From contig OY740827.1 in NCBI GenBank assembly GCA_963514005.1, forward strand, positions 2,418,001 to 2,482,000: 64,000 bases of DNA. The letters run 5' to 3'. The stretch is from Raja brachyura. Taxonomy: Eukaryota. The translations under genes and the position numbers were made by a program. Shown here piece after piece: positions 2,853 through 63,129 of the stretch (positions are counted from its first letter, which is position 1; each line of letters opens with the position of its first letter). The notes under the pieces were generated by a model. The model saw nothing but the letters and a program-made list of their open reading frames with translations, was not told the DNA's origin and made no database searches.

Positions 2853-3437
2853 AGTAAGATTAAACGAGAACTTACCTGTTCGAAGTTTGATCTTTATTTT
2901 GTGAGGAGTTACGATGAGGGATTACGTGAAGAAGCCCCGCCTGGCGCTTGATCGGCATAGTTCAAAGCAGCGGCATGAAAAACACAGAACCAATAGCCGG
3001 AGTAAGATAGTAAGGCTCAACATAGACTAGAACTACCAGATGATCATTTACATTATGAGGGTTGGGAGTGGAGGGCACGTAATCCCTCATCGTAACTCCT
3101 CACAAAATAAAGATCAAACTTCGAACAGGTAAGTTTTCGTTTAATCTTACTATTTTACTTCGGAGTCAAGTGAGTGACTACGTGAAGATTTTAAAGCTCT
3201 GTGTTTTTTATGCCGTAGATTCATTCCATACGACTCTCTGTTTAGTCAAAACAGTAGTGAGTAAATAGTATTTTAAGACATTGTTACAATTTATGTAATA
3301 AATCCTTTAAAAAAGAACAATTTTTAAAATAATAACCTCTCTATCGTAGGGGAAAATTACAAAAGAAAAATGATAAATGATGTCAATGGTAACATAAATC
3401 GATAATATAAATCGATAATATAAAACAAAGCAAGCAT

Positions 3438-5479: not shown

Positions 5480-6607
5480 TTCGGAGTCGCGGCGCTGCTT
5501 GTCAGCTGTGGCTCACCTGCAGTCCGTCTGTCTTTTATTTTATTTTTGTCCTCGTCCCTGTTTTTGGTGTTTATTTTTGGTTTGTCGGGTTGTGTATGTA
5601 TGTGGGGGGGGGGGGAGGGGGGGAGAAACGGGGTTTTAGTCTCTCCCTTCGGGGGGATGCGACTTTTCCTGTCGTGTCCCCCGACATCGTCTCCGTCTGT
5701 GCTGAGGCCCTGGTGAGGGCCTTCCAGCTTCCGGCGGCGGCGGCACGGCCTTCAGAGCTTCAGCGGCGACCTGGCTTCCGGCGGCGGCCTGGGCTTCGGG
5801 AGCTGCGGTGCTCCAGCGGCGGCCTGGGCTTCGGGAGCTGCGGTGCTCCAGCGGCGGCCTGGGCTTCGGGAGCTGCAGTGCTCCAGCGGCGGCCTGGCCC
5901 CCTCTGAGCTGCGGTGCTCCAGCGGCGGCCTGGGCTTTGGGAGCTGCGGTGCTCCAGCGGCGGCTTGGGTGTCGGGAGCTGCGGTGCTCCAGCGACGGCC
6001 TGGGTGTCGGGAGCTGCGGTGCTCCAGCGGCGGCCTGGGTGTCGGGAGCTGCGGTGCTCCAGCGGCGGCCTGGGTGTCGGGAGCTGCGGTGCTCCAACGG
6101 CGGCTTGGGTGTCGGGAGCTGCGGTGCTCCAGCGGCGGCCTGGGTTTCGGCAGCTGCGGTGCTCCAGCGGCGGCCTGGCTTTCGGGAGCTGCGGTGCTCC
6201 AGCGGCGGCCTGGATTTCGGCAGCTGCGGTGCTCCAGCGGCGGCCTGGCTTTCGGGAGCTGCGGTGCTCCAGCGGCGGCCTGGCTTTCGGGAGCTGCGGT
6301 GCTCCAGCGATGTTCCGGCGGCGGGCCCTGTGGCGGTGTTCCGGCGTTCCGGCGTTAGCGGCGGCCTGGATCCCCTCAGCGCAGAGGGAGAATAAGGAGG
6401 GGAGAAAAGACTGAGATCCTAAGACTTTTGCCTTCCACCACAGTGAGGAGGTGTTTGGTGCGCTCACTGTGGTGGATGTTAGTTTTGTGTTTATTGTGTG
6501 GTATTGTATTGTTGTTTTTTATATATGTATGACTGCAGGCACGAAATTTCGTTCAAACCGAAAGGTCTGAATGACAATAAAGGTATTCAATTCAATTCAA
6601 TTCAATC
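5480..6607 (+). mobile_element. Non-autonomous retroelement (SINE-like) with Rex1-type 3' tail and internal minisatellite
   Basis: Absent from the paralogous DIRS copy C. Flanked by AACTG (5475-5479, 6608-6612). The 3' end AAATTTCGTTCA...TGAATGACAATAAAG(TTCAA)n matches the tail of the Rex1 at 48930-49000. Confidence 0.75.
5780..6310. repeat. 35-bp GC-rich minisatellite (about 15 units)
   Basis: Unit GGGAGCTGCGGTGCTCCAGCGGCGGCCTGGGCTTC with period 35 (5798, 5833, ...). Confidence 0.95.
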
Positions 6608-7459
6608 AACTGAATTAATCACAAATCCCAGATATTCAATGGTTTGGGATGGCTGTAACTTAGATTTTGTTGGATGAATCAGGAACCCCAGCTTTTCAAA
6701 CAAGCTTGTAGTTGCTGAGACTGATTTTTCAGCTGACTCCTGATTAGCATTGACAATTAAAATGTCATCTAGATGAGCCATAACGATGTGTTTTTGTGCC
6801 CTTAGCAGTGCAAGTGCTGGCTTCAACAATTTAGTGAACAATCTAGATGCTGAGCTTAATCCATTATGTAATGCTTTGTATTGCCACAGCTGTCCCATCC
6901 ATTTAACTTTAAATACCTGCGAAAGCGCTGATGAATTGGACCTGAATAATATGCATCTTCAAATCTATTGTAGCCATATAACAACCTGTTGATACCAGCT
7001 GCATTGCAGTGTTGAATGTGTCCATTTTAAAATGTTTATACTGGACAAATGTATTCAATTGTGTGAGATCTAAAATGATTCTACAACCCCCATTTCTTTA
7101 GTCTGGGAAAAATATTTGACACAAATTGTTGTGGATCCTCTCTTATTTTCTCAATAACTCCTTTCTCACACAAATTCTTAACCTCTTTGTCAATTTGAAT
7201 TTTTTCAAGAACAGAAAACATCAAAGAATGATTAGGCTAATTCTGTCCCGATGGTTCCATACCTTCTACAAAATCAATGGTAGATCCTAAAACAGTATCT
7301 AATAGAACACAATCAGATGTTATACTATTCACTATAAAACATTCGGAGTCTACCACAAAACTGAGGTTCATCCAACATTTCTTCTTTAATAGGATAAAGT
7401 TTTTGTACCTCTCCAACCAGACGAAGTGATCTCCTTCTCCCAATAATGGATGTACATTC

Positions 7460-8640
7460 GGCTGTGCTGGCTGGTAATTTTTCCTTATCATACTCCTGCC
7501 TCAGCTTGTTCCAGCTCCAAAATCAAATCCCCTTCTCATTTGACCAGCCCTTCTCTGGCCAACATTGAAGGGTTTCATAAGGCCAATAGTTTTTGCCTCT
7601 TCATCAATGTCTTTAATTTGTTTAGACAGATTTTCTCCGAACAAATAACCAAGAGCTTCAACATTGGTTGCCCTGCACAACCCTGCAAATCTTGGATGTA
7701 AAAGAGGTCGGATGGCAATCTTCCTCATATAATTTATCTCAAAAAATGAGAGGCAGAATAAAACCAACATATGGTTCTGAACTTTGGTCATTCCACAACC
7801 TTCCAGCTTGTCTTCCAAAAGACAGTGATGCCAGCCGAAATTAGCTTGAGGATTCTTTGAATCGTAATTCCTGCGCCCGCATCATTGATGACATTGGCAC
7901 CCAAATAGCCGGATTCACCATAGGTACCTTCAGTGAGGTACAATTAGTAGGTGTTTTAATCCAAATATGCTGTCTCAACCATAACAGCTTCTTGAGGCAG
8001 GTCAGAGACCATATAATTAATATTGGCCGCCAGGTTTCCTTCCATGGCCTCACCGCCTCCTCCAGGTATAGCAAACTTTGTGCCACATCAGACACACCTG
8101 GATCAACATATTTGTATTGTGGTGGGTACTTCTGACCGCAAACACCACTTTCAGGGTCAGTCTCCTACAGCCCTGGTACTCCTGAAACTTGTTCAAGGAG
8201 ACTTCCTCCAGCCCAATCCCGGGCACTGGAGTTTCAATTCCCAATTCAAACTGGCACCATATTCATGATATGGAACCCCCTCAGGGCTGCCTGCGAATAT
8301 TCTGGGTTCTTAGACCCTTGGTTGATTATTGTTTGGAGTATTTTCTCCATTTGATCCATTCTGAGCCATAAGGCTTTCCTTTCAGGACATTTCGAATTCA
8401 TCAGAAACCTCAGGCCTTTCAAGCTTTTCTTTTACATTTTTAGGCACTGGGTTTTCCTCCAAAGTTTTTGTTTGTGGAGCAACCGAAGCCTCACTAACGG
8501 GTATTTCAACGGCCACCGGTATCGGAACCCGCTCCGCAATAATCTGCTGTCCCGACTCTTCTACAGCCCGGGACGCACGTTTTACCCGCGATTTAAAAAA
8601 ATATATATATTTTAATTGAACTCCACCTGGTTTACCCACC
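7460..8640 (-). pseudogene. DIRS gag-like ORF (fragmented), copy A
   Basis: TPTNCTSLKVPMVNPAIW and HPRFAGLC...LFGENLSKQIKDIDEE are homologous to the gag of the intact copy at 39095-40300. Confidence 0.85.
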
Positions 8641-8823
8641 AGCCTACGGAGTTTTAGAAAACGCCCTGGAAGTAAAATAATTTTACTTACCTGCGGGCCG
8701 TTTCCCTACCACTGTGTTGGAGCTGCGCTCTGCAGCTCTTCCTCTACCGATAGCGTCGACGTAATGCCGATCTAGCGCCAGGCGGGGCTTCTTCACCTAG
8801 TCACTCACGTGACTCCGAAGTAA

Positions 8824-10200
8824 AATCAACTTTGGTTCAATACGTGGACGACTTGTTGGTGGTTAGTTTAGATGAGCAGAGCAACCGTGAGGATGCTACC
8901 CAATTATTGAACCCCTTGGCAACATTAGGAAATGTGGTCTCTCTGTCCAAAGTATTAATGGCTCAACAAAAATTATAATTCCTGGCAGTGATAATTTCAG
9001 CCACAAAAAGAAGTCTGCAGAATAATAGAACTGAACCAATTTGTGAATTTCCTGCACGAAAAGAAACAAAGTAGACGAGACACTGGCTCGGCATTGTGAA
9101 CTTCTGCTGATCATAGATCCATGATATTGCGCTAGACACCAAAGACATGACTCCTTATACTAGCCTAGAGAGCGAATTTCAGTTGTCCGAAGAAGCTCAT
9201 TAAGCTGTCGAGAATTTAAAGAGACCTCTAATGCAGCCTCCAGCACAAGGAAGGTCACTCTATGACAGACCCATCCTACTTTACTGTACCATGCTTTCCG
9301 AATGTTCAACTGCTGTCCTCAACCAAAAAACATAGGAATAAGGACAGACGAGTGGCTTATTATTCTTCCAAACTTGACGCAGAAGCGAGAGAATACCCAA
9401 TATGCACACAGATCTTAACAGCAATCTATAATAGTTTACAGTCTGCTGCAAATCTGTCTTTACATCAAGAGATAGTAGTATTCAGTTCCTTTTCAGTGGC
9501 AGCCTTGTTAGGACAACGACAAACTCAGCATCTGACAATGACTCGTGTAAACAAATATCTGTCTACTGAATAATCCAAACTCCAGTTCAGATACTATAAA
9601 ATGATTAATCCGGTATCTTTCTTCATTTCACCACTGGAGGAACAGTCAGAATCAGGACGTTACTTTATATTTGTAATACAGGAAGAGATATCTGTGAGGG
9701 AAGATCTGAAGGATGCTCCTATAGCAGACCCTGATCTGACATTATACGTAGGTGGGGGTGCATCTAATAGGCCCCAGGGAGAGAAGCTTTATGGATACGC
9801 TATTGTAGACCAGGATGGGAACAGTGTAGAAGCAGCTTCCAGCGAGTCACCCTTTTCATCCCAACAGACTGAGTTGATCGCTTTCATCAGAGCATGTATT
9901 ATCGGAAGAAGTGCTGAAATTAAACATATACACAGATTCTGACTGCATTTGGGGTAGTACACGATATTGGCTAACTATGGAGGAATCGAGTATTCCTGAC
10001 CACGGCAGGAACTCAAATATCTCACAAGTAATTGGTAACTGATTTCTTACAGGTTCTCAACTGCCCAAGCAAATTTCGGTCATGAGATGTAGTGCTCACA
10101 CAAAGGGCCAGACCCCGATTGACATGGGGAAATATTGTGCTGACCAAGCAGCTAATGGGGTATCCTGGGAACGCATGGAGGTAATGCCAAAGATGATGGG
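8824..10200 (+). pseudogene. ERV pol (RT C-terminal, tether, RNase H), degenerate; class I/epsilon-like
   Basis: STLVQYVDDLLVV, VAYYSSKLD, DLKDAPIADPDLTLYV, SSQQTELIA, AFGVVHD.G.LW..R.FLT..G, CSAHTKG...ADQAA. Continues the RT frame from 2852 once DIRS A is removed. Confidence 0.9.
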
Positions 10201-10747: not shown

Positions 10748-11700
10748 ACTTCCGGTGGCGCCATGATATCTTAACAGACGCTGCACATCGCTCCACTCCC
10801 TAAAATTCGCGTTTTTTCACGTTAAAACCGGGTCTACAGGTCGGGACCAATTAAAAAATCTTATCGGAGCCTCTGCTCGACTTGCTGATAACATCATCAG
10901 TAACAGCTGTGAATTTAACAGAGGCTTAAACCACTTTAAATGAAAACTTCTTCTCTGGGTAAGAGCACTCAGAGGACAGTTACAAAAACTCTCCAGGGGA
11001 AGCCAGCCAAAGCCTGCAGATTTATTTTGAAGCAGCTTCCGAAGGAAAGGTGCTTTTCGATATGGCTACAAGATTAAAAGCAGATTTGGCCAAGGACAAA
11101 GAATTTGAAGAATTAAAGCTTTCAGTAAGTGAACTGAAAGATGTAAAGGTGGATGGAAAAAAGATGGAACACATGATGGGAGTGATGATGGAAAAGATAG
11201 AAAAGCTAACGCTAAATATGACTTCTTGTAATCAGAATGTTATTGAGTCTGTGAAGGATTGGATTGGCACTATTAATAAACGGATTGACGATGAGAGAGA
11301 TGAACTATCGGAGAGAATTGATAAGGGTGAAGAAGACACCACAAAGAGGTTCGGCGCTGTGCTGGACACTGTATCAACCTGTATGTTAACAATGCACGAG
11401 ATGGAGGATGAGAAGGCAAGAATGGTGGAGGAGATGAAGAAGGTGAGGTCAGAACAAGACTTTGCTACACGACAGATGGCGACTCAGCTGGCTAAAGTTT
11501 CAGACAAATGTCTGGACCTCAAGGCTCGTTCAAGACATCGTAACCTAAGATTAGTTGGTGTACCAGAGGGAGCCGAGAGAGATAACACTTGCTAGTTCGT
11601 TGCGGGATTAATTAAAGAGGCTCTTAAGCTCCCTAAACTACCAAAAATTGAAGGAGCACACCGGGTTCCTGGATACACAAATCTCAGGATGGCTCAGAAC
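10748..11700 (+). mobile_element. L1-clade LINE 5' end with ORF1 (3'-truncated)
   Basis: Starts GACTTCCGGTGGCGCCATG. Coiled-coil ORF (11050-11595) leads into CLDLKARSRHRNLRLVGVPEGAE and, after a stop, IEGAHRV, which are Transposase_22/L1 ORF1 motifs. Confidence 0.85.
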
Positions 11701-11705
11701 GTACA

Positions 11706-13425
11706 CGACAGGTCATCTAAATCCTTGACCTGCTTCGGGAGGTCTTCTCCGAATAGCTGTCTGGGTGGTGGTGTTGGGGGTGCTCTGCATAGCCCCGCAA
11801 ATTTGGGGTTTAATGTAGGCTTGATGATGCTTTTCCGAAACGCATTTATCTCATATTGAGTGTTGCATAGCAGTGCCAGAGCATCCTCCTGTTCGGTGTT
11901 CAAGTCCACACCATCCACCGACCTCGCAAAAGCGGTAATCCCAGATGTGAGCAGTTTCAGGATTCTTTGTAACTTCACTTCCTGTGCTGTAATGCCCGGG
12001 CTAATATTGCCCCAAATAGGCATGTTCACAATAGGCACATTGAGCGAGTTACAATTACTCGGTGCCTTGTGTCTGTTCATGGCCTCCGCAAGGACCTGCT
12101 CCTGTAGCTGATGGTTGGTGAGGAAATCAATGGTAGCGGCCAGTTTGGTATTGAGGGGTTGTCCCGATGATTCGGGTAATGCAAACTTGGCTGCCACGTC
12201 CAGGAGTTCCTCCTGAGGGACCTCAGGTGCTACTGGTGCGTGAACCAAGATCTCCTCTTCTTCTGGCTGCCTCATGCTATCCATTGATGATGGGGATATA
12301 TCCATGAGTCCCCTGGAACTGAATGTTTCCCGCCTTTGATTTTGCTGCAGGATCTGTTCCATTATCCTCTCCATCCAATCAATGCGCCCTTCGTCGTGCG
12401 TGAATGGGCGGTCAGAGTCCTCATGCCCAAAGGAACTTCTGAGGCTCCTGTCATCGGCCCGTACCTCGTCGAGGTAATCTCGGTGCCGTGACGAAAAGTC
12501 GCTGCCAGCCGCCTCAGCGAAACTGAACGACTCCCGCGCGGATCTGCTCATACGCCTCCTTTTGGCTGAGCTAGGCCCGGCTGCCTCTAAGGGCATATGC
12601 GGTGTGAAGTCGGCACCCAATGCCGCAGCGTGGTGACCCGACATCCGCGCGGGCTTGCCGACTGTCCTTTTCCTGGACCCAGACGACGTACGGTCCCGTC
12701 CTGCCGCCAAAGGGGGATGCGGTGACCGTGGCGAGACTCCACCTGTGTGACTCCTCCTGGTCCAACTAGGTGGTGAGTCTACACTGGCCCTCCCTGGTCT
12801 GCCAGTGGACTAGGGTCTCGCTAATTCACCAGTCCGCAATCTTGCGGCCTCTGGTGAAACCTCTGCCCGAAAAGGGCTAGGTTGTCGAGCTCTATCCCTG
12901 GCTCTTCCACAAGGGCTCAGGGAGAAGGGCCGTGCAGCAGCACGTGAAACCCGTTTGCTCGCATCAGCCAACGATCCTGTTGGCGATAATGAAATGGAGT
13001 CAGGGTCTACCTGCTCCGGCGCCGTACCGACTTCCTGCTCTGCGGGAACCCCGCTTGTGCTCAGCTGTGTCGGTGGGTTGAGTCCTGTGAACACAGGGCT
13101 CCCCGATTTACGCGCCTTTTTCCCGGCCTGTCTAGCGGGTGCTGTCGTTGAAGAGAGCTCCGGGATTGGCGGCCGGTGACCCCGTACGGACGTCCTGCGG
13201 CCCGTACTCCTCTTATCCATGTCCCTGTTGGAGAGAAAAAATACTCAAAACAGCAGGGACAACCAACTCAAGGTTGTCTGTACTTAGCTGAGTGGCCCTT
13301 ATGAAGGGCTGGTGGTGAGCCGCGCTCCACCTCCAGCCATCGACTGCAAATGCGAGCGATGATATGTCGCGCATGCGTGCTGGCGGGTTCTTCACGAAGT
13401 CACTCACGTGACTCCAAAATGAAAT
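11706..13425 (-). mobile_element. DIRS segment B1: left ITR plus gag (3' part lost)
   Basis: Left terminus at 13360-13425 matches copy D. Gag ORFs 12810-13220 and 11694-12710 are in one frame, separated by a single TAG, and share LCNTQYEIN...LNPKFAGLC...LFGEDLPKQVKDLD with D. Confidence 0.9.
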
Positions 13426-15573
13426 TAACCTTACTCCCGGCACTGGGAATTAATCATCTAGAAATGCTGGGAGCATTTCATGGACTCCGGGCTTACTGTT
13501 CAGACATGCACCATCTGCATGTATGCTTACAAATTGATAATACCACCGTGGTGGCTTATATCAATCATATGGGTGGAATTAAGTCGATATCTTGTGATGA
13601 ATTGGTCAATACAATCTGGCACTGGTGCTTAGAAAAGAACATTTGGATATCAGCCACTTACCTTCCGGGTAAGCTGAATACAGTGGCGGACACCAGGTCA
13701 CGCAAGTTTAACGACAACACCGAATGGATGTTGGACCGCAAAGTGGTTGCCGATATTGTAGATCGGTATGGAACACCAGATATCGACCTTTTTGCATCCA
13801 GACTTAACCACCAAATGTTGCATGGGAACCAGACCCTGGGGCAGTAGCGATGGATGCTTTCTCGCTACACTGGGGGGATTTGTTTTTCTATGAATTTCCC
13901 CCCTTCTGCCTCATCAGTCGGGTCTTGCAGAAAATTCAACAAGACTCCGCATCGGGTATTCTGGTTGTGCCCGACTGGCCTACTCAGCCATGGTTCCCTG
14001 TGATACTGGACATGGTCCCAGAACCATGCATTCCAATACCCAAACGTCCGGGATTACTGGTACATCCTGTGACTGGGGAGAGTCACCCATGCCATGACCG
14101 GATTAACCTATTGATTTGCAGGGTTTGAAAAGGCCACTCCTGGAATTTGGATTTTCGGACCGAACAATGAATATCATCACGGCATCATGCAGGGAGTCCA
14201 CCAGGAGACAATACCTCACTTACGTCAAGAAATGGGAGGTGTTTTGTACCAAGACAAACACCACATATGACACAGCCACCATTACGGAAGTGCTGGAGTT
14301 CCTGGCGAGCCTTCAACTTGATGAAGGTTTAAGCTACAGTGCCATCAACTGTGCCAGGAGTGCCCTATCCTCATATCTCGGACTAGGTTTAGATGAGGGG
14401 AATTTTAAAGTAAAATTAAAATTTTAAATTTATGAGGGGAATTTTAAAGTAAAATCCCCCCAGGCCTAGATATTCCCAGACCTGGGATATTGGCATTGTG
14501 CTAACCATGCTCCGAGGGTGGGCACCAGTAACGTCTCTTTCCCTAGCCAAATTGACATACAAAATGGTCATGCTGATGGCACTTGGGATGGCGCAACGGG
14601 TCCTGTCCCTACACAAGCTAAGTATGGACGCCATGGTTATAATCAACAATAAGGTAACTTTCTTCATTCAGGGGTTACTGAAACAAGACAGGCCTGGATC
14701 ATCTGGCCACAAGGATTTCCTGGCCTACCCCGTAGACAGCCGCCTATGCATAGTGACCCACCTTTTACACTACATGGAGGTCACCAAGTGTCTCAGGGGC
14801 ACGGAAAGGGCTCTGCTTATAAGTCACAAACGGCCTCATCACGGAGTCACCGTGCAATCTATTTCAAGATGGCTAAGGGTGGTATTGGGTGCAGCGGGGG
14901 TGGACACTGATCTTTTAAAATCTCACTCCACCAGGGCTACATCTACATCATCGGCAATGATGATGGAAGTTCCTTTGGATCACATCCTTGCAACGGCGGG
15001 TTGGGCTAATGAAAAAACCTTTCAGCGGTTCTTTAATAAACCCGTGGCCGCACCTGAGACGTTTACAGACACAATTTTAAGTTCTGTATTACAATTTCCC
15101 CCAAGTAGGGGTATTATTATTGTTATTTGTTAAATAAATACCCTCTTGTTTTTCAGCACAGTTTCATGTCTGAAATACGTTAACATACTTCCTCCATTTG
15201 TCATTGTGGCAGTGTGTGAGCATGGACTCGTTCCAGGGCATGAAATCACAGAGCTTTGAAATCTTCACGTAGTCACTCACTTGTCTCCGAAGTAAAATAG
15301 TAAGATTAAATGAGAACTTACCAGTTTGAAGTTTGATCTTTATTTTATGAGGAGTTACGATGAGGGATTACGTGCCCTCCGCTCCCAAACCCTCTATTAT
15401 AAAGGTCAACTGGTATATGGTTTCTCTTAATCTTACTATGTTAGTCACCTCTGGTATCTGTGATATCACACCACTGCTTTGAAGAATGTCGCGGGGTCTT
15501 CATGTAATCCGTAACTCCTCATAAAATAAAGATCAAACTTCAAACTGGTAAGTTCTCACTGAATCTTACTATT
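13423..15573 (+). mobile_element. DIRS segment B2: RNaseH, MT-like, YR, ICR and right ITR (5' part lost)
   Basis: INHLEML/DNTTVV, DLFAS...FPPF, and YR with HSTR/AGW motifs (14116-15133, broken by a short duplication near 14390-14450). ICR at about 15262-15374; right end at 15573. Confidence 0.92.
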
Positions 15574-36875: not shown

Positions 36876-39094
36876 ACACCACTATTTTTCACATTGTATA
36901 TGAATGATTGGGACGTGAGGATTGAAGGCTTTGTGATCAAGTTTGCGAATGACACGGAAATAGGTGGAGGGGCAGGTAGTGTAGCGAAAGCAGGGATTCT
37001 GCGGAAGGACTTGGACAGGTTGGGAGAGTGGACAGGGACATGGCAGATGGAATATACTGCAGCAAAGGAGGGAGTGATGCATCTTTTACAAAAATTAATT
37101 AAGCAATTATTACAAGAATAATATATACAATACAAAACAATACCTAACAGAACCCACCACCATAATACAAAGCACAACTATTCTTAAATATTAAATATAC
37201 TGAGTATTAAATAACTGTGTTACAACCCCCATTGAGTAAGACTTCCAGCCCACGCGGTGCCCAACTGTCCTGAAAATCCTGCAGGGTGCCCGTAGTCCCT
37301 CTCTAACACCACCCGGGCACAGACATAACCCTGGAATAGAGGCAGGCAGCCGACTCGGGCAAAGCCCTCTTCCGCCTGGCACCATGACTCGCGGATGGCC
37401 AGCTTGGCCTCGCCCAGGAGCAACCCAACCAGGACATCTTCGGCCCTACCCTCTCCCCAATGCACAGGGTGTCCAAAGATGAGGATGGTGGGTGTGAATT
37501 TCAGCCAGAAGGCAAGGAGCAGCCCCTTTAGTTGTTGGAACAGGGGCTGCAGCCTCACACACTCCATATGCACGTGGAACAGACTCTTCCAGCCCACAAA
37601 AATAGTGAGATTAAACGAGAACTTACCAGTTCGAAGTTTGATCTTTATTTTATGAGGAGTTACGATGAGGGATTACGTGAAGAAGACCCCGCCTGGCGCT
37701 GGAACGGCATACTTCAAAGCAGCGGCATGAAAAACACAGAAACCAATAGCCGAAGTAAAATAGTAAGGCTCAAAATAGACTAGAACTACCAGATGATCAT
37801 TTACATTATGAGGGTTGGGAGTGGAGGGCACGTAATCCCTCATCGTAACTCCTCATAAAATAAAGATCAAACTTCGAACTGGTAAGTTCTCGTTTAATCT
37901 CACTATTTTACTTCGGAGTCACGTGAGTGACTACGTGAAGATTTTGAAGCTCTGTGTTTTTCATGTCGTAAATTCATTTCATACGACTCTCTGTTTAGTC
38001 AAAACAGTAGTGAGTAAATAGTATTTTAGGACATTGTTACAATTTATGTAATAAGTCCTTTAATCATAAAAAGAACAACTTTTTAATAATAACCCCTCTA
38101 TCTTAGGGGAAAATTACAAAATAAATTGATAAATGTTGTCAATGGTAACATAAATCAATAATATAAATCGATAATATAAAACAAAGCAAGCATTAAAGAG
38201 AACCCATTACTGTGTGTCTAAATCCTGGCACTGTGACAACAGGTTTATTCTAGAACTTTGAAAATCTCTTCTCTAGACCACCCTGCGGCCTCTAAAATTT
38301 TATCGAGTGGCACGTCCTGTACCTTTGCCACGGACGTAGCTGCCGCCCTAGTGGAGTGAGATTTAAACACATCAGTGTCTATTCTTGCTAGACACAAACC
38401 ATCCAGAAATGGTTTGAACTGAACCTTTTGTATGTGGCTTTTTGTGTGTTATTAATAACGCTTTCTCAGAACCTCTGAGATTTTGGTTACCTCAATGTAC
38501 TGAGTTAAATGCTTAACCACACACAATGTTTCATCAATAGGATATGCTTTAAACATTACCTTCATTCCAGTTCTTCCTGGTCTGCTTTGTTTGATCAAGT
38601 CATAAACATAAAACATAATGTTATCTGCAGTCACATGCATGCAATCCAACCGTACAACTGCAAAGCTTGTACTCTTTTTGAGCTGATACCAATGCCATTA
38701 ACTTTACCACCTTGAATGTTAATTTCTGCAAAGACATTGAATTAATTGGAGTCCATTGTTTAAACAAAGTGAGAACAATGCTAACATCCCAAATTCCTGT
38801 ATATATGGGCTTGGGATGATTTTATTGAAATTCCTTTCATGAGTCGGGATACTAATGGGTGAGACCCAATGAATCTCGATCTGAAATTTGTCCTAAATAG
38901 GATGACAATGCACTACGAGCACAATTTTACTTCGGAGTCACGTGAGTGACTACGTGAAGACCCCGCCAGCACGCATGCGCGACATATCGTCGTGCGCATG
39001 TGGAAGCGACGGTCGGGAGGAGCGGGGCTCCTCCAGCGTGAGTTTTAAAAAGCTCACGCCAGGTAAGTCTCACCGAAGGAGTGAGTCGACCATT

Positions 39095-40300
39095 ATGGAA
39101 GGGAGAAAATCAAAGAGAGCGGCGGCCAAATCAGCGGCTAAGGACAGCAGCCAACGGAGAACCGCCTCTCCAGAGCTACAGGTTCTACCTGCAGCTCCCG
39201 ACTTTTCGGACTTTGAGACCGTTGGTACGCCACGGTCGGGGAAAACTATCCGGAAGTCGGCCGGGGCCGACTCAGCGGAGTCCGGTCCCGAGGGCACCCC
39301 GCTCGCTGGCAGCGACGGAGGTCGCCTTGACCGCATTGAGCGGATGATGGAGCAGCTGCTTCAACGTGACCTGCTAAAGCAGGGGCAGGATCACAGTGGG
39401 ACCCCTAGTAGGCCCACGGCAAGTTCCTTTCGAGGACTGCCTAATGTATCCCCTTCTATACAGGGGAGCATTGAGGGTCAGAACTGGGCTGACCCAGAAG
39501 AAGGGGAGTTGGCTGAAGCACCTGCAGCGTCAGGGGTGTGTGAAGATTATATGGATGTGGTGAGCAAACATGCCATGCCCAACCAGAAGGGCCTACCCAT
39601 CCACCCCAAGCTGGCTGCCAGCATTGATTATATGGCCACTAACCAACTTCAGGAACAGGCCATCAATGCCACAGCAGATAAATATATGGCGCCAGAAAAC
39701 TGCAAGTCATTAAATGTACCCGCGGTGAACAACCCGATATGGGGAAACATGAGCCCCTCGAGTAGAGGGCAGGAGATGAAACTTCAGAAGATCCTGAAGC
39801 TCCTTACCGCAGGGATTACTGCAGTAGCCAGAACAGCAGTGGGAGTGGACATGCCGGAAGAACTACAAGATGCTTTGGCCTTACTGTGCAACACACAGTA
39901 TGAAATAAATAATTTCAGGAAAAGCATTATAAAGCCGGCGCTTAACCCCAAGTTCGCGGGGTTGTGTAAGCCTGGGAAGACACAGCCTCCAAGCCTGCTA
40001 TTTGGGGAAGATCTCCCCAAACAAGTTAAAGATCTTGACGAGGAGGCTAAGGCTTTGGGCCTTATTAAAGTACCTGGGTACACTAAGCCTCATCACCCAC
40101 ACAGAACGCACCCCTACGCACCCACCGGGCAGAGTTACCCTAACAGGTCTGCCGGTGGTGAAAGCTCGAAGGCCGGCATACCTGCACAGCGGTCTTTTTT
40201 AGGCCAAGGCCCAGGCCGGCCTCCTTGGAAGATGCGCCACTCCCAGAACACCTACAACCAGCCGAGGAAGCAAGGGCAGAAACCACCACACCGGCAGTAA
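39095..40300 (+). CDS. DIRS gag-like protein (ORF1)
   Basis: Open frame from 38942 with likely start MEGRK at 39095; homologous to the B1, A and C gag remnants. Confidence 0.85.
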   Translation: MEGRKSKRAAAKSAAKDSSQRRTASPELQVLPAAPDFSDFETVGTPRSGKTIRKSAGADSAESGPEGTPLAGSDGGRLDRIERMMEQLLQRDLLKQGQDHSGTPSRPTASSFRGLPNVSPSIQGSIEGQNWADPEEGELAEAPAASGVCEDYMDVVSKHAMPNQKGLPIHPKLAASIDYMATNQLQEQAINATADKYMAPENCKSLNVPAVNNPIWGNMSPSSRGQEMKLQKILKLLTAGITAVARTAVGVDMPEELQDALALLCNTQYEINNFRKSIIKPALNPKFAGLCKPGKTQPPSLLFGEDLPKQVKDLDEEAKALGLIKVPGYTKPHHPHRTHPYAPTGQSYPNRSAGGESSKAGIPAQRSFLGQGPGRPPWKMRHSQNTYNQPRKQGQKPPHRQ

Positions 40301-40302
40301 CC

Positions 40303-42221
40303 ATGGAGGTAGGTGGGTCTGGGATCCCCAAGAACACTACTGGCCCAAATTCACTCTGCATAGGGGGCAGGTTGCACATGTTCCTCGAGAGTTGGCTCAC
40401 TTTTACCTCTGATCCTTATATACTCAGGAGTATTCAGGGCTACAAAATTGAATTTATTCACGAACTCCCTACCCCGGTACAGCATGCGCCTAGTCGGAAA
40501 TTCGTCCTTTCTCATAGAGATAAGGCAGCAGGGCATGCTGAACTACAGAGGTTAATAGAAAAAGGGGTAATTGAAAAGGCCTTTAAAGAACCTCAGGAGT
40601 TCGTGTCTAATATATTCACTAAAAACAAAAAAGATGGCGGGTGCCGCATCATCATAGATTTGACCGACCTGAATACTTCTGTCCAGTATATTCATTTTAA
40701 AATGGACACCTTCGACACTGCTACTCAGCTTGTAGCCAATAGGTACTACATGGCATGCGTTGACCTTAAAGATGCATACTATTCAGTACCCATACACAAG
40801 GATCATAGGAAATACTTAAAATTTATCTGGATGGGACAATTATGGCAATATAAAGCTTTGCCTAATGGGCTATCGTCAGCACCCAGATTGTTTACCAAGA
40901 TATTGAAACCAGCTTTGGCCTATTTAAGGAAACAGAATCATACTGTTATGGCCTATCTTGATGACATCCTCATAGTGGGGGAGAATTTGGAAATGGCTAC
41001 TTTGGCAGTCACAGCCACGAAACATATTTTTCAGATACTGGGGTTTACGATACATCCAGATAAATCAATATTGGAACCCTCTACCACCATGAAATATTTG
41101 GGGTTCATTATTGACTCAGTGCAAATGTCTGTCACGTTACCACCAAGCAAGGTGGAAGACCTGATAGAGGCTTGCAGGAGCCTCTTTGGCATTAAGGTCC
41201 CATCCATTCGGCAGGTGGCCAGGGTGATTGGGAAGATAGTAGCTGCATTTCCTGCAGCACAATATGGGCCCTTACATTACCAAAATTTACAAAGAGCAAA
41301 AATCATGCTGGCCATTTTGATAGGCCCATGAAAATTCCAGAAAAGGCAAAAGCTGAACTATATTGGTGGATGGGTAATGCCCAAAATTGTTCCAAACCCA
41401 TGACTATCGCCAATCCCTCGATCACCTTACAAACGGATGCCAGTGCCAAAGGGTGGGGAGCTACTAACACTACCTCTAGCTGTGGAGGTAGATGGAGTGC
41501 ACCAGAGTTAACCCTATTTAATAACTTAGGGATTAACTATTCAGAAATGCTGGCAGCATTTCACGGACTTAAAGCATACTGCACTAACATGCACAAAGTT
41601 CATGTTAGACTACAGATTGACAACACCACGGTGGTAGCCTATATTAACCACATGGGCGGTGTAAAGTCGATATCGTGTGATGAATTGGCCAACAATATCT
41701 GGCACTGGTGTCTGCAAAGAGGAATTTGGATCTCTGCAACTTACCTACCAGGTAAACTAAACACAGTGGCAGACACCAGATCACGGAAATTCAACGACAA
41801 CATAGAATGGATGTTGGATCGGAAAGTGTTTACAGATATTGTAGAACGTTATGGGACACCAGATATCGACCTTTTCGCGTCCAGGCTAAATCACCAACTA
41901 CCAACGTATGTTGCTTGGGAGCCAGACCCGGGGGCGGTAGCGATGGATGCTTTCTCGCTACACTGGGGGGATTTGTTTTTCTACGCTTTCCCCCCTTTCT
42001 GCCTCATCAGTCGGGTCTTGCAAAAAATCAGGCAAGACTCCGCATCGGGTATCTTGGTAGTGCCCGACTGGCCTACTCAACCATGGTTCCCTCTGGTACA
42101 AAAGATGGCCACAGAACCCTGTGTCAGGGTGAATAAAAGACCAAGCCTGCTTGTTCATCCTGTTACAGGAGAAAGTCATCCATGTCATGATCGTATGGAT
42201 TTGTTAATTTGCAGACTTTAA
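40303..42221 (+). pseudogene. DIRS RT - RNaseH - adenine-methyltransferase-like ORF2 with one frameshift near 41305
   Basis: DLKDAYYS, LPNGLSSAPR, YLDD, TDAS..GWG, DNTT, DLFAS and AFPPF motifs. ORFs 40225-41331 and 41328-42221 are separated by a deletion of about 16 nt relative to copy A. Confidence 0.92.
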
Positions 42222-43192
42222 AACGGCCACTTCATGGACTCGGACTCTCCAACAGGACCATTGATACTATCACGGGAGCCTGCAGAGAGTCCACAAGGAA
42301 GCAGTACTTGACCTACATCAGGAAGTGGGAAAGATTCTGCGTGACTACTAAAACTACATACGAAACCGCCACCATCACGGAAGTGCTGGAGTTTCTGGCT
42401 ACCCTTCATTACGATGAGGGTTTAAGCTACAGCGCCATTAACTGTGCCAGGAGTGCCCTATCGTCTTACTTGGGCAAGGGGAGTGACCAATTGGGAATTG
42501 GGTCACATCCCCTGGTATCCAAATTTATGCGGGGAATATTTAATTCTAATCCCCCCAGGCCCAGATATAGCCATACCTGGGACATCAGCACGGTATTGAC
42601 GATGCTGCGAGGATGGACACCGAACACGGGACTCCCTTTGGCCAAATTAACCTACAAAATGGTCATGATAATGGCACTGATCACGGCGCAACGGGTCCAG
42701 TCCCTGCACAAACTCAGTCTGGATGCCATGGCAATTACCAGTGGGAAGATCACATTCCAGGTGCAGGGACTATTGAAGCAAGATCGACCCGGAGTGTCTG
42801 GACATACTTTGGAGTTCCTGGGTTACCCAGCGGACACTCGTCTTTGTATCGTTACATTGATTCTGCGATACATTTCAGTCACTAAAGATCTAAGGGGCAC
42901 GGAAACAGCTTTGCTTGTCAGTCACAAGAAGCCTCATCACAGGGTCACGGTGCAAACCATTTCCAGATGGTTAAGGGTGGTACTGGATGCGGCGGGGGTG
43001 GATACTAATGTGTATAAATCTCACTCCACCAGGGCAGCATCCACCTCGGCGGCTAGAAGGATGGAGGTACCACTGGATCACATCCTGGCCACAGCGGGTT
43101 GGAACAATGAGAGAACCTTCCACCGCTTTTATAACAAACCCGTGACCTCCCCTGACAATTATGCAGGGAGGATCTTAAGTGCTGCCAGTTAA
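42209..43192 (+). CDS. DIRS tyrosine recombinase (ORF3), intact frame
   Basis: Catalytic set R (AQRVQS), K (LKQ), HxxR (HSTR), W (AGW), Y (RFY). No ATG until codon 107. Confidence 0.93.
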   Translation: MQTLKRPLHGLGLSNRTIDTITGACRESTRKQYLTYIRKWERFCVTTKTTYETATITEVLEFLATLHYDEGLSYSAINCARSALSSYLGKGSDQLGIGSHPLVSKFMRGIFNSNPPRPRYSHTWDISTVLTMLRGWTPNTGLPLAKLTYKMVMIMALITAQRVQSLHKLSLDAMAITSGKITFQVQGLLKQDRPGVSGHTLEFLGYPADTRLCIVTLILRYISVTKDLRGTETALLVSHKKPHHRVTVQTISRWLRVVLDAAGVDTNVYKSHSTRAASTSAARRMEVPLDHILATAGWNNERTFHRFYNKPVTSPDNYAGRILSAAS

Positions 43193-45760
43193 ATAACCCT
43201 TTTGGGACACAATATTGTGTTTGGTATGAATAAATACCTGTTTTGTTTTTCAGCCAGTGTCTTGTCTGAATCACGTCCATCCTCTTATCCCAGCTTTAGC
43301 GGTGTGTGAGCATGGAGCTTCCAGGGCATGAAATCACAGAGCTTTGAAATCTTCACGTAGTCACTCACGTGACTCCGAAGTAAAATAGTAAGATTAAACG
43401 AGAACTTACCAGTTTGAAGTTTGATCTTTATTTTATGAGGTGTCACGATGAGGGATTACGTGCCCTCCGCTCCCGACCCTCTATTATAAAGATCACCTGG
43501 TATGAAAGTTCTCTTTTTTCTCTTACTATGTCAGTCATTGTGACTGTTTGTTCTGTGATTTCACACCACTGCTTTGAAGAATGTCGCGCATGCGTGCTGG
43601 CGGGGTCTTCACGTAATCCCTCATCGTGACACCTCATAAAATAAAGATCAAACTTCAAACTGGTAAGTTCTCGTTTAATCTTACTATTAATGGCACTATA
43701 CTCAAATGCTCATCAAGTGTAACCCAGCAAGGAACTGTAATACATTTGAAATGTTTGCAGTATGATAAGATATCTTTGACTGTGTACACTTCCCATTTCC
43801 TTATATGCGACTTATATTGTTTTAGTGCTATTCCTCCAAGCTGCAACTATAACATCCATGGTCCTGTCCGACAGTACAAACTCTTGCAATGGTCTGGTCA
43901 GAACCTGCAGATTAACAAATACATATGATCATGCAATGGATGAATTCCTTTTGTTACTGGTTGTGTCAACAGATTGTCGCAACTGGGAATTGTCATACAT
44001 GGTTCAATAATCATATTAGCATCAATGGGAATCATGACTGCGTGGGCCAATCTGACACCACCAAAATTGCATTCGACAGCGTCTTGCGCTTTTTATTGAG
44101 ACATTGCCCAATGAGACAGAATGGGGAAAATCATAAAATAACAAATTCCCCAGTGTAGCGAGAAAACATCCACCGCTACTGCCGCTGGATCGTGTTCCCC
44201 AAGACACGTATTTGAGCAATTGGTGATTCAATCTAGATGCAAACAGATCAATGTCCGGCACTCCATACCGACTGACAATATTTTGAAATTGTGTGGATTA
44301 AACATCCATTCTGTATTGTCTTCAAATATTTGTGATCTTTATCTGTCACAACATTGTCTCTCCCCGAGAGATAAATAGCTGAAAGCCAAATATTTTTTGC
44401 CATACACCATTGGCACATCTGGTTTACCAGATGATCACATGATATTGATCTAACACCACCCATGTGATTAATATATGCCACAGCTGTGGTATAATCTATT
44501 TGTACTTGGACATGCAAATCCTTTAATGAAGGGCAATAAGCTTTTAATACATAAAATGCTACCAAGAGCTCCAAATAATTAATACCATATGTTTGGAACA
44601 ATAAATCCTCTTGGACAGCCCATCTGCCTCTACAGCTGGTCTCATTATCCGTACCCCCCCCCCCCCCATCCGAGAGAACTTCGTCATTTTGCAAAAACAC
44701 TACTGGCTGATGAACTAAAAGTTCTAAGCAGCTTATGGAACATTCTCAATCCATCAATGTAATTCTGATAAAACTTCCTTAGGCAATTGCATTGGCCTAT
44801 CAAATGGCTTGCTCGCTGAATAAGCGCTTGAGTTTTTGCCCTTTGAAGATTTTGGTAATGTAGACGACCAAACTCTACCGTCTGGTGAATGCTGCTGCCA
44901 ATTTACCAATAATCTTGGCAACCTCTCGGATGGAGGGATAAGGTTTGTAAATCAGGTCTTGACACACATTTGTCAAATCCAACACTTATCCATTGGTAAA
45001 GTTACCAACATGGTAACTGAGTTAATCTCAAACCCCAGATATTCAATGGTTTGGGATTGCTGTAACTTAGATTTGTTGGATGGATCAGGAACCCAACTTC
45101 TCAAACAACTTGTAGTTACTGACTAATTTTCCACCTGGCTCCTGATTAGCATTGACAATTAAATGTCATCTAGATAAGCCATAACGATGTACTTTTGTGC
45201 CTAAGGCAGTGCAAATGCTGGCTTAATCCTTAAAGGCAAAGCTTGTAGTACCACAAACTGTCTCATCCATAACTTAATTACCTATGAAATTATGGTGAAT
45301 TGGGACCGAAATATGCATCTCTTCAATTTATTGCAGCCATAACCACCTGTTGATACCTGCTGTATTGCAGTGTTGAATGTGTCCATTTTAAAATTTTTTA
45401 CTGGACAATATATTTAATTGTGTGAGATCTAACATGATTGTACAACCCCATCTTCTATGGCCTGGGGAAAATATTTGATACAATTGTTGTGGATCCTTTA
45501 CCTGTTTCTCAATACCTCCTTCCTCACACAAATTCTCACATCTTTGTCAATTTGAATTATTCCAAGACTATAACATGAAGAATGATCAGGTTATTGTGTC
45601 CCAATGGATCCATACCTCTTCATTATCAACATTTGGAGTCTACCACCAATCTGAGGTTCATCCAAACATCCTTCTTAAATAGGATTAAGTTTTGTACCTC
45701 CCCAACTGTTTGACGAAATTACCTCCTTACCCAAAAATGTGGGTGTACATTCGTTATTTT

Positions 45761-45855
45761 ATTTAATATATGGTCCCTAGATAAGGGACGTATCAGATTT
45801 AAACTGATAAGAACAGATACCATGCTTAATCTTAGCCAAAAAGCCGAGAAACGAT
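45761..45855 (-). pseudogene. U2: U2 snRNA retrocopy (5' ~95 nt, truncated before the Sm site)
   Basis: Reverse complement ATCGTTTCTCGGCTTTTTGGCTAAGATTAAGCATGGTATCTGTTCTTATCAGTTTAAATCTGATACGTCC...ATATATTAAAT matches the U2 5' half. Short A-rich tail at 45754-45760; absent from DIRS A. Confidence 0.93.
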
Positions 45856-48059
45856 TTGCTGGCTGGAAATTCTTCCTTATCATACTCCTGCCTCGGCTCA
45901 AATCAAATCCCTTTTCCATATGACCAGCCTACTGGCCAACTGAAGGGTTTCATAAGACCAACAGTTCCTTCCCCTTCATCCATACTTAATTTGCTTAAAC
46001 AGATTTTCTCCGAATCAATAACCAGGAGTTTGAACATTGCTTGTCCTGTAAATCTTTGGATGTAAAAGAGGCCGAATGGCAATCTTCTATTTATATAATT
46101 TAACTCAAATAAGTTTGCAGAATAAACCTAACATATTTTGTTTCATTCTGAACTTTAGTCATTCCACAACTTCCCAGCTTGTCTTAAAACACAGTGATGC
46201 CAATTAGTTTGAGGATTCTTTTAATCGTAATTCCTGCGCCCGCATAATTGCTGACATTGGCGCCTAAAACCCGGATTTACCAGGTACCTACTTAAAGGTG
46301 TTTTAGAATGCTTCATGCATTATATTCTGTATTATTCCAATTTTAGTATGTGTGCTGCCGAAGCGAGCACATGTTTAAATGCAAATCTGCTGTTTCAACC
46401 ATAACAGCTTCTTGAGGCAGGTGAGAGACCATATAATTAACATTGGCCGCCAGGTTCCTTCCATGGCCTCACCGCCTCCACCAGGTATAGTAACTTTGTG
46501 CCCCTCAGACACACCTGGATTTGCATTGTGGTGGGTACTTCTGACCACAAACACCACTTTCAGGGTCTGTCTCATACAGCCCTGGTACTCCTGAAACTCG
46601 TTCAAGGAGACTTCCTCCAGTCCATACCCAGGCACTGGGGTTTCAAATTCCCAATTCGAATTGGCACCATATTCACGATATGGAACCCCCTCAGGGGCTG
46701 CCTGGGAATATTCTGGGTACTTAGACCCTTGGTTGATATAATTTGGAGTATTTCCTCCATTAGATCCATACTTAGCCAATTTTAGGCTTACTTTACAGGA
46801 TCTTTTAGAAACCTCAGGCCTTTCAAGCCTCTTTTTACTTTTTAGGCACTGGGTTTTCAAGTGTTGTTTGTGGAACAACTAAAGGCTCCCTAACGGGTAT
46901 TTCAATCGGCCACCGGTATCGGAACCGGCTCCGCAATAGTCTGCTGTCCCGACTTTTTACACCCCGGGACGCACGTTTTACCCGCGATTTTCTTTTTAAA
47001 ACATTTTATTTTTTATTTTTATTTAAACTCCTGCTGGTTTCCTACCAGCCTACGGAGTTTTAAGAAAAACGCCCTGGAAGTAAAATAATTTTACTTACCT
47101 GCGGGCCGTTTCCTTACCGCTGTGCTGGAGCTGCGCTCTGCAGCTCTTCCTCTGCCGATAGCGTCGACGTAATGCCGTTCCAGCGCCAGGCGGGGTCTTC
47201 TTCACGTAGTCACTCACGTGACTCCGAAGTAAAATAGCAGGTGGCTGCTGAGTCTGTGAACCGTGACACAAACAGGTTGCAAGGGACTCCTCGGTCTAGT
47301 ACCCTCCACCGCAGGTCACCGATGGAGGGGGAGAATCCCTGCCTAGAGGGACCCCCATTGGGGAGGCATCTCGCGGCTGAAAGTTAACACCGACCGCCAC
47401 TTAGTGTCTGGACAGTGGACTAGGGCGAAGACTTGGAGGGTGTGGGGGAGCCCGTACAGGAGACACCTCCCTGTGTCTTGTTGGGAGATGGAGTGTGTCA
47501 AGGCAAGGTGGCTCCCGAGAAGGATTTTGGTGCCTGGGTGCGACGAGTACTTCCGGCTGAGCGGGGATTTGCTCAGCCATGAGTACTTCTCCCATGAGCC
47601 TCCCCGACACCCGGTGTGGCGGGACAAGGGCTGGACTTCCTATTGGGAGGTGAAGGGATGGGTGGAACCTTCCGGACCTCAGGTGGCTGCTTCTCCAGGT
47701 GCTTGACTGCCTTGGCCGCCTTGCCCCTCTTTTGACCCCACCCCTACCCAAGCTCTGCGCAACCCGAGGGTTCCTTGACTCAACTACAGGGGAAGTGGGG
47801 GGGGGGGGGGGGGGGGAGGGGTTAGTGGCACCGGAGATTTGGGGCAATTTCCGAATATGCTCCACTTCCTTGCACGCATGGCACCTTGGGAGCTCCGATG
47901 TCCACCTATCCTGCTGGACACAGAAGCACCCACCAACTACCTCCTCCTGCTGCAGCAACATCCTCAGCTGGTACCAGAGGGAAAGAACATGCTGCAGCTC
48001 CTTTCTGCGGTCCCCTGGTATATCGGGGTGATGTTCGTGAAGACCTCATAAGTTCATAA

Positions 48060-51375: not shown

Positions 51376-51572
51376 TTACTGTGGGAAGGGCGGTGAGGGA
51401 GTGATGCACTGTGGGAAGGGCGGTGAGGAGGGAGGCTCTACCCCTACACTACCACGCCGCTCTTCTACGTTCTGTACACACCAGGTCCACAGCGCAGGAT
51501 AAAAGGTGGGGAAAGTGAGTCCAGTGAACTGACAGGGTTTTCACTGCTAAAGATTGTTCCTTCTCTCCTCAG

Positions 51573-60450: not shown

Positions 60451-60589
60451 GTGAGTAGACACACGGTCACGTCTCTCTGAACATACTGTAAATGTGAAGT
60501 CAGTGGAACATATCGTGTATTGCCGGGACACTGTTGTATATCTACCTCTCTCCCACACTCTCTCTCCTCTTGTAAGATGAAAATTGGAT

Positions 60590-63124: not shown

Positions 63125-63129
63125 GGATA

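Follow-up and report, generated by a model that had tools for sequence, protein, structure and literature searches.

Flawless ends on a decayed copy: five DIRS1-like retrotransposons in a 64-kb window of the Raja brachyura genome

The 64-kb stretch of Raja brachyura DNA analysed here (the window) contains five DIRS1-like tyrosine-recombinase retrotransposons, A to E, one of which, copy C, starts and finishes with ATT and joins a heavily decayed body to ends that match its ICR without a single mismatch. C probably, though by no means certainly, stems from a lineage that was dead in its genes, kept its cis signals and was recently reinserted by proteins acting in trans; A, B and D are ordinary copies in this explanation. 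Under the published DIRS model, all five copies would have both ends rebuilt from their own ICR in every cycle and would integrate at an ATT core via the tyrosine recombinase (YR). A, B and D would have been intact at insertion and would have decayed in place afterwards. The C lineage would have lost all coding function long ago and retained an intact promoter-side end, the ICR and the 3' fold-back module, so that, at a recent date (under ~1% decay ago), a transcript of C could be reverse-transcribed and integrated here. Because this reinsertion would have followed the death of its own genes, trans-acting proteins would be needed, and we infer that selection preserved the cis signals across several cycles.

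Layout and class of the five copies

An earlier note on this DNA had given 37601..47235 as the location of its DIRS system and had named four copies. Two elements lie there, C with D nested antisense inside it. A and B are located elsewhere in the window, and copy E, the fifth, had been overlooked:

Copy C, 37601..47235, minus strand: full-length, heavily decayed DIRS1-like element of the A/C family, interrupted by D
C left terminus, 47199..47235, minus strand: 37 nt, exact complement of the left ICR
C left ITR core, 47172..47198, minus strand: 27/27 against the right ITR core at 37684-37710
U6 snRNA 5' fragment, 46326..46370, minus strand: in C gag; Rfam RF00026, E 0.007, under the gathering score
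U2 snRNA 5' fragment (~nt 1-103), 45755..45855, minus strand: in C; Rfam RF00004, E 1e-15
C gag, RT, RNase H, putative MT and YR start, 43689..47070, minus strand: 19 frameshifts in pol and YR start
C YR 3' part, 38200..38926, minus strand: 7 frameshifts
C ICR, 37829..37941, minus strand: 113 nt; complements the circle junction (right end-ATT-left end) at every position; 1 C-private change
C 3' fold-back module, 37711..37968, minus strand: predicted to form a long rod, the spacer paired with pre-ICR and ICR; fold z -8.3
C right extension, 37601..37679, minus strand: 79 nt, exact complement of the right ICR
Copy D, 38924..43688, plus strand: young and almost intact DIRS1-like element; nested at an ATT core in the C YR gene, antisense to it
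D gag, 39095-40300, plus strand
D RT/RH/putative MT, ~40300-42221, plus strand: single frameshift near 41305
D YR, 42191-43192, plus strand
D ICR, 43350-43462, plus strand
Copy A, 2850..8826, minus strand: A/C family, lightly decayed; ICR at 3076-3188
Copy B, 13426..15573, plus strand: 3' half of an element related to D (RH/putative MT, YR, ICR, right end)
Copy E, 11694..13425, minus strand: left end plus an open gag, from a further family; antisense junction with B at an ATT core

The assignment to DIRS1-like elements is based on proteins and termini alike. The reverse transcriptase of D matches Pfam RVT_1 (E 2e-20), A, B, C and D can all be aligned to DIRS-type pol homologues, and a tyrosine recombinase takes the place of an integrase (Pfam Phage_integrase and SAM domains; HSTR motif in A-D). 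A PDB search with the D YR gave no match. The putative MT region of D (41196-42218) is without a Pfam or NCBIfam match; it aligns with the homologues that carry PF05869 (4 of 64). ITRs and a right extension are present in A, C and D, and the 113-nt ICR is complementary to both termini, which overlap in the 3-nt circle junction ATT. The ends are of the NTT type without a longer target duplication: the empty site of D, as preserved in A, has a single ATT, and A, like C, both starts and finishes with ATT.

Copy A splits an LTR-retroelement/ERV-like RT remnant and carries a later insertion of 1133 nt (~5477-6610); the body and ends of B have decayed alike, and the gag of E is 44% identical to that of D. 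Two of the four locatable insertion sites lie inside another DIRS copy, which is not a significant nesting preference because DIRS elements occupy about a quarter of the window. The target of C is an ATT core inside a LINE ORF2-like remnant. Since this host LINE is itself decayed (a few frameshifts and one stop in ~700 nt, by eye), it is no independent proof of a young insertion, and dating C through it was abandoned: the LINE has no second copy in the window, no Pfam match and one weak match in a HMMER library.

End identity, coding decay and the cis module

The ICR agrees with the two termini at 116/116 positions in both C and D and at 113/116 in A, and the ITR core outside the ICR-covered part at 27/27, 25/25 and 25/26 positions respectively, as the earlier note had observed in calling the ends flawless in C and nearly so in A; the right end of B matches its ICR at 70/73 positions and has a 6-nt deletion. 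If the ends are rebuilt from a copy's own ICR in each cycle, the mismatches at ICR, terminus and ITR date its last integration: 0/140 in C, 0/138 in D and 4/139 (~1.4%) in A. For C, 15.5 mismatches would be expected at 5.4% decay (P 1.8e-7) and 23.7 at 8.3% (P 5e-11), both tests being computed on 143 pairs. Copy-specific variants occur jointly in the ICR and the right terminus (one in C, two in A, two in D, one in B), again as noticed before for A, C and D, and one more splits A/C from B/D. The private variant of C is present in the terminus and absent from the spacer complement; it was copied from the ICR into the terminus, which bears out the earlier proposal that the ends are re-templated from the ICR.

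The coding regions tell a different story for C than for the other copies. Against homologue profiles, pol and YR contain 26 frameshifts and 6 stops in C, 6 and 2 in A, 2 and 1 in B (3' half), and 1 and 0 in D, so that A and C, which had been thought similarly damaged, are not. The alignable part of the C gag adds ~6 further frameshifts, and the C YR has a stop codon at what we take to be the position of the catalytic Tyr. Among 192 near-invariant columns, 24 are broken in C only and 4 in A only (P=1.8e-4); branch lengths in a quick pol tree are 0.31 for C vs 0.053 for A. Neutral decay is ~5-8% in C, while the body of A has decayed by 0.9-1.4%, which equals its own end clock (4 mismatches seen vs 2.6-4.0 expected) and thus fits an intact insertion with subsequent decay in place. 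A contains 9 frameshifts in ~3.3 kb vs ~3.5 predicted from the background indel/substitution ratio of 0.076, which is biased low; given this surplus, A too may have been inserted with part of its damage already present. Only C combines dead ORFs with cis ends that are intact and recently rebuilt, whereas decay in place suffices for A; the earlier idea of a non-autonomous A/C lineage is supported for C, as reinserted after gene death, and unsupported for A.

The cis parts that are not re-templated are preserved as well. Between C and A they differ by 15 substitutions and 1 indel in 354 nt, while across 3701 coding nt the counts are 412 and 75 (P 4e-7), and the one private change in the C ICR compares with ~9 expected at 8.3% decay (P 6e-4; P 0.02 at 5%). 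The predicted 3' fold of C (-105.8 kcal/mol) is about as stable as that of young D (-104.6), and none of 150 simulated versions with 8% decay folded as well. The rod stems from single-sequence fold predictions; in an RNAalifold search for covariation across four copies, only 4/74 pairs had two-sided changes, and the consensus differs in part from the rod, with the ICR folded on itself. Flawless ends, combined with an ICR and a fold-back module that are intact without being re-copied, indicate that the ends of C were rebuilt after most of its damage.

Alternative explanations and the helper

The main rival, a real though minor possibility, is that C is a recombinant of young A-type ends and cis module with an old dead body. 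Either the template switched between RNAs packaged together, or ectopic conversion replaced the interior of a young insertion. The cis regions are ~4% from A, with much of that distance being A's own decay, and the ICR carries its single private change. The damage of C is also patchy: the share of differing aligned positions is 20% in 46383-45201 and 9-10% elsewhere, which makes the former a 1.2-kb block with twice the damage that contains both snRNA fragments (two-changepoint gain 40 log units), and this unevenness fits a mosaic and speaks against reinsertion in trans. However, a recombinant requires breakpoints near the cis boundaries on both sides, and divergence from A falls gradually and without a step, from 15.7% in RT over 9.8% in RH/MT, 5-8% in YR and 5.7% in the 3' UTR to 3-5% in the cis regions. 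The template-switch form would also require helper proteins.

A/C and B/D proteins are only 54-59% identical in amino acids and saturated at synonymous sites, but between C and D the ICR agrees at 109/113, the right 79 nt at 75/79 and the left 37 nt at all positions. The near-identity of ~36-nt left and ~75-nt right ends across protein-divergent families had thus been correctly recognised, and terminal sequences are 93-97% alike; B and D, at a dS of about 1.4, do not form a single close family. This likeness allows cross-family use without demonstrating it. The proposal that B/D machinery was the helper fits poorly, since the ITR core, spacer and ICR variants of C are A-type and none of the three ICR bases that distinguish D is present. 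Judged by these variants, an intact A-type element would be the simplest helper, and a D-type one is possible. Protein database searches found no close intact A/C-type protein (best matches 67% for YR and 56% for pol), and none of nine gag matches was A-type; the database contains few skate DIRS, so that a missing A/C master is weak evidence. We offer only as speculation, and a rather doubtful one, that synonymously saturated skate DIRS families share one near-invariant cis code (circle junction, ICR and predicted 3' fold-back rod), that any active family could then copy any member, and that long-dead full-length elements like C are a recycled passenger pool with captured host RNAs.

It is improbable that the A/C family in its entirety lives as a non-autonomous satellite whose damage built up over successive reverse transcriptions and whose mobility depends on B/D machinery. 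The cross-family ends and the lack of A/C-type proteins above 67% identity agree with such a satellite, but conserved ends also occur in D and E, whose genes are open or nearly so, and are therefore not specific to parasites; nor does A, whose decay equals its end clock, fit. Among the 11 pol/YR lesions of A none is clearly shared with C, and three candidate common frameshifts (pol profile positions 144 and 163; gag A 7864/C 46221) are equivocal, though they would speak for a satellite. Changes common to A and C at conserved columns are mostly conservative, and a dN/dS of 0.50 with a third-position excess (56/56/85) suggests that selection acted along part of the path between them.

The mutation spectrum of C bears on both sides of the claim that its damage arose during reverse transcription. 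Transversions are frequent among its changes (31 ts/45 tv; background 259/186; P 0.006), a significant CpG excess is absent, and 1-nt differences are mostly deletions in C. CpG decay was dropped as a proof of genomic residence, as the initial signal was lost under the GpC control (15/48 vs 31/150, P 0.17), although the test is significant in the reverse direction (16/49 vs 19/137, P 0.006). At the shark germline rate of 7e-10 per generation (PMC10587355), 5-8% decay takes ~1e8 generations, so that error-prone cycles may contribute. The spectrum is, on the other hand, strand-symmetric, and the U6 fragment is flanked by a decayed, TSD-like duplication of ~12 nt (read by eye), both of which point to genomic damage; no flanking duplication was seen at the U2 fragment. 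Both passengers are absent from A and are themselves decayed, the U2 fragment being ~10% changed from the Rfam consensus over its first 66 nt.

It is very improbable that C is an old in-place copy with ends kept identical by local gene conversion, either among the inverted repeats of C or with nested D as donor. The ICR and right end are inverted repeats only 149 nt apart and the D ends sit within C, but A and B, of the same geometry, retain uncorrected mismatches, the left end is >9 kb distant, and ~6 private changes would be expected fixed in both 79-nt repeat copies where one is seen; D as a donor was rejected, as the variants of C are A-type and those of D absent. Sequencing or assembly error is hardly credible: 1-nt deletions prevail in C (36 vs 12) and 23/48 of these differences fall in runs of >=3 bases, which make up 21% of bases, but D, read on the same molecules inside C, has 1 frameshift in 2.8 kb, and substitutions in the hundreds and two insertions of snRNA are part of the damage in C.

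Significance and comparison with known systems

The literature already documents that restoration of the ends depends on the ICR, that DIRS proteins can act in trans and that the DIRS order includes a non-autonomous element. The tests of DIRS replication that we found in the literature are from Dictyostelium only, and the copies in the window are natural vertebrate evidence for copying of the ICR into both ends, direction included. The ICR/terminus match provides a per-copy clock of DIRS insertion, independent of coding decay, with which a passenger pool, if real, could be counted genome-wide, and the cross-family ends delimit the cis signals for a helper assay. Should siblings of C exist, dating repeats by divergence would give wrong ages for DIRS activity, and dead copies would have to be counted as mobile. 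The case for C rests on a single copy: C alone is anomalous, and no sibling with its lesions lies within the window, which weighs against reinsertion in trans. Long-lived non-autonomous lineages usually shrink; C, by contrast, is nearly full length.

The reference for DIRS1-like elements is Dictyostelium DIRS-1, together with a survey (PMC3266345) and the Xenopus families (PMC9210276). The copies described here share with them gag, RT/RH (with a putative MT) and YR, ITRs, an ICR complementary to the termini with a 3-nt junction, and a right extension. ATT termini are the commonest type in the survey, and the combination of short ITRs and a long right ICR is similar to what its Table 3 lists for Aplysia. 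Insertion into other DIRS copies is also on record (PMC7192593, PMC5633606). Compared with the elements in the relevant portions of these publications, three features differ: perfect ends at 5-8% body decay in C, ends 93-97% alike despite saturated dS between the families, and an ICR within a predicted fold-back rod with the spacer.

In Dictyostelium DIRS-1 the ICR is essential, a coding-defective construct is served by RT in trans, and other proteins act on supplied cDNA, in a single-family laboratory assay in which no full cycle of the defective construct was observed (PMC7192593). Unlike that construct, C would have arisen naturally, in the genome of a vertebrate.

TOC1 of Chlamydomonas has split direct repeats, not ITRs and an ICR. 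According to the part of its description considered here (bioRxiv 10.1101/2022.06.16.496473), it is an active non-autonomous YR retrotransposon of the DIRS order, mobilised without proteins of its own, as C would have been; TOC1 is an established multi-copy family, whereas C is a single copy of full length that has ITRs, an ICR and pseudogenised ORFs. The snRNA fragments of C are 5'-complete and 3'-truncated like the LINE-made pseudogenes of PMC4476161, which the TSD-like duplication at U6 also resembles. Unlike the pseudogenes in the compared portion of that work, U2 and U6 both lie within one DIRS copy in sense orientation, and U2 is without a duplication, so that capture during DIRS reverse transcription is possible.

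Copies and surroundings

Self-comparison and alignment of element ends revealed five DIRS1-like tyrosine-recombinase retrotransposons, of which A and C form one family and B is related to D:

2850-8826, minus strand: copy A (self-comparison and end alignment)
about 11694-13425, minus strand: copy E (left end and gag)
13426-15573, plus strand: copy B (3' half)
37601-47235, minus strand: copy C (self-comparison and end alignment)
38924-43688, plus strand: copy D (self-comparison and end alignment)

D, which encodes gag, RT/RNase H/methyltransferase and tyrosine recombinase (YR) with a single frameshift near 41305, interrupts the YR gene of C in antisense; ATT stands at both of its ends and once at the corresponding empty site in A. 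The E-B junction likewise shows ATT and antisense nesting, E lying within B, and the remainder of E and the 5' half of B are absent. The left 37 nt of E carry 4 changes; its gag, an open 371-aa frame of a further family, matches that of D at 44% and homologue P0188 at 81%. Five of the nine gag homologues are named, and each is a skate sequence (Rhinoraja longicauda or Leucoraja erinacea), as is one pol match, which points to a skate host. Named YR homologues (P0025, P0031, P0050, P0055; 41-44% identity) belong to oyster, sea urchin, mussel and sea cucumber, and bony vertebrates do not appear by name among the YR homologues listed.

A splits a decayed LTR-retroelement/ERV-like pol (2300-2849 and 8827-10250), with weak RVT_1 matches on both flanks and RNase H domains further out; a 450-nt repeat pair lies inverted at 2327-2773 and 10268-10713. 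A 1133-nt insertion (5477-6610) in the RT of A looks like a non-LTR element: it contains a tandem repeat of 70 nt, a tail of short-unit repeats and a duplication of 5 nt. We take the host of C (37150-37600 and 47236-48045, minus strand) to be a Tx1/L1-type LINE remnant, interrupted in the C-terminal Cys/His region of ORF2; Pfam gave no support for the LINE label. At 10963-11690 (plus strand) a 210-aa coiled-coil frame precedes a stretch that presumably resembles LINE-1 ORF1, Pfam returning only weak, unrelated matches, and a frame at 51551-51958 (plus strand) appears by eye to be similar to the immunoglobulin V-type exon of genes like Siglec/CD33.

A wrecked body between clean ends

Over 4615 aligned nt, A and C are separated by 463 substitutions, and by about 88 indels. 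Frameshift-aware alignment to profiles built from the 30 best YR homologues of 120 listed and the 30 best pol homologues of 64 yields 26 frameshifts and 6 stops in C (some of these stops may sit in locally shifted stretches), 6 and 2 in A, 2 and 1 in B, and 1 and 0 in D; the alignable part of gag has about 6 frameshifts in C and 3 in A. Polarisation by D assigns 76 changes to C and 34 to A and leaves 85 ambiguous; the counts for second codon positions are 35 and 6 (about 8% vs 1.4%). Once codons close to breaks and noisy regions had been removed, C alone breaks 24 of 192 near-invariant columns and A alone 4 (5.4% vs 0.9%); their branches in a quick pol tree measure 0.31 and 0.053. C, unlike A, contains a 5' piece of U2 (Rfam E 1e-15; by eye, the Rfam alignment shows about 6 substitutions and a single deletion over 66 nt) and one of U6 (E 0.007, under the gathering score).

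Every internal complementary region (ICR) is 113 nt long and complements right end-ATT-left end. The earlier note had described perfect ends in C and near-perfect ones in A, copy-specific variants present in both ICR and terminus, and near-identical ends in families with divergent proteins, and these observations hold. ICR and termini match at 116/116 positions in C and D and 113/116 in A; the inverted terminal repeat (ITR) core outside the ICR-covered part matches at 27/27 in C, 25/25 in D and 25/26 in A; the right end of B matches its ICR at 70/73, plus a 6-nt deletion. ICR and right terminus have in common 1 variant in C, 2 in A, 2 in D and 1 in B, with 1 at family level. A third, partial junction complement in the spacer of C (37750-37767) does not carry C's variant, which is what copying from the ICR into the terminus alone would produce. 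Between families, ICR identity is 106-109/113 and a 151-nt stretch is 94% alike in C and D, despite proteins that are only 54-59% identical and saturated dS.

The core of the third near-copy of the circle junction (37750-37771 in C) is conserved in A, B and D, and single-sequence folds pair it with the ICR. The ICRs of A (3169) and B (about 15281), of different families, carry the same G-to-T at position 20, which the left end of A does not; either this is a recurrent mutation at a palindrome, or the left end is sometimes not templated by its own ICR.

If ends are recopied from the ICR in each cycle, their mismatches date the last integration. Decay of C in place predicts 15.5-23.7 end mismatches, and none is observed (P 1.8e-7 to 5e-11); at the 95% level, C can have decayed by no more than about 1% since its ends formed. 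A has 4 where 2.6-4.0 are expected, so only C is anomalous: its ends are far cleaner than its body, whereas the ends of A, contrary to what had been proposed for the pair, match body decay. A looks as an intact insertion decayed in place would look, although its 9 frameshifts are rather many for the background indel rate. The anomaly is real, in one copy only.

Where C escapes re-templating, namely in the ICR, the spacer, the pre-ICR and the following 100 nt at the 5' end, 354 nt contain 15 substitutions and 1 indel relative to A, in contrast to 412 and 75 in 3701 nt of coding sequence (P 4e-7). Folded without the right extension, pre-ICR, ICR and spacer are predicted to form a long RNA rod (z −8.3 in C, −7.3 in D), with energies of −105.8 in C, −104.6 in D, −89.4 in A and −76.9 in B; 0 of 150 simulated 8%-decay versions matched the energy of C. 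Since the four-copy consensus fold is partly different and shows little covariation, the rod remains a prediction. The intact template in a wrecked body would mean either that selection maintained it through repeated cycles or that C recombined with a young copy.

Source of the damage and ancestry of the A/C family

Sequencing error, named in the earlier note as a possible origin of the indels, is unlikely given that D, nested within C, is clean. The polarised changes of C are strand-symmetric, and its U6 fragment is flanked by a TSD-like duplication, resembling the LINE-made truncated snRNA copies in the accessible part of PMC4476161; both point to genomic residence time. Against this count the lack of a significant CpG excess among C changes, a ts/tv of 31/45, compared with 259/186 (P 0.006) for 13 pairs of background repeats, and the about 1e8 generations needed for 5-8% decay at 7e-10 per generation, the epaulette shark rate given in the accessible part of PMC10587355. 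The background pairs, 5-12% apart, come from dense SINE/LINE-type repeats at 16300-36900 and 52300-63650. Time in the genome and damage during rounds of reverse transcription probably both contributed.

None of the 11 pol/YR lesions of A is clearly common to C; at profile positions 144 and 163 shared and independent lesions are equally parsimonious, and a frameshift in gag, at 7864 in A and 46221 in C, is possibly common. The A-C pair has a dN/dS of 0.50 and the B-D pair one of 0.11, and the 19 changes common to A and C in conserved columns are mostly conservative, 9 of them giving the D residue. The A-C ratio, the conservative changes and the lack of a clearly shared lesion suggest that the A/C ancestor was functional in pol and YR.

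Proposed mobilisation of C and known DIRS elements

On balance we lean towards C being a long-dead DIRS that was mobilised in trans, its cis signals preserved. The main rival, that C is a recombinant, draws on how unevenly the damage is spread (46383-45201 has 20% of its positions affected, other parts 9-10%), and we consider it rather unlikely. The family-wide helper/satellite system of the earlier note finds no support in the window, where only C is anomalous and the A/C ancestor appears functional, and is highly improbable. As for the machinery behind mobilisation in trans, the variants of C in ITR core, spacer and ICR are all of A-type, none of D-type. The searched sets, which hold few skate elements, yielded no close A-type protein (best matches 67% and 56%); copy A indicates that an A-type element was probably still working about 1.4% ago. 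The shared ends would also permit use of B/D.

Literature searches listed no report of full-length ITR/ICR copies that are decayed yet have rebuilt ends, of end identity across families or of skate DIRS, though earlier mention is possible, and the accessible parts of PMC9210276, PMC8498967 and PMC5633606 contain no C-like case. NTT/ATT termini, extension and ICR belong to the DIRS anatomy outlined in the accessible part of PMC3266345. That of PMC7192593 describes an essential ICR, proteins acting in trans and insertion into existing copies, and a non-autonomous DIRS element is known in TOC1 (bioRxiv 10.1101/2022.06.16.496473, accessible part).
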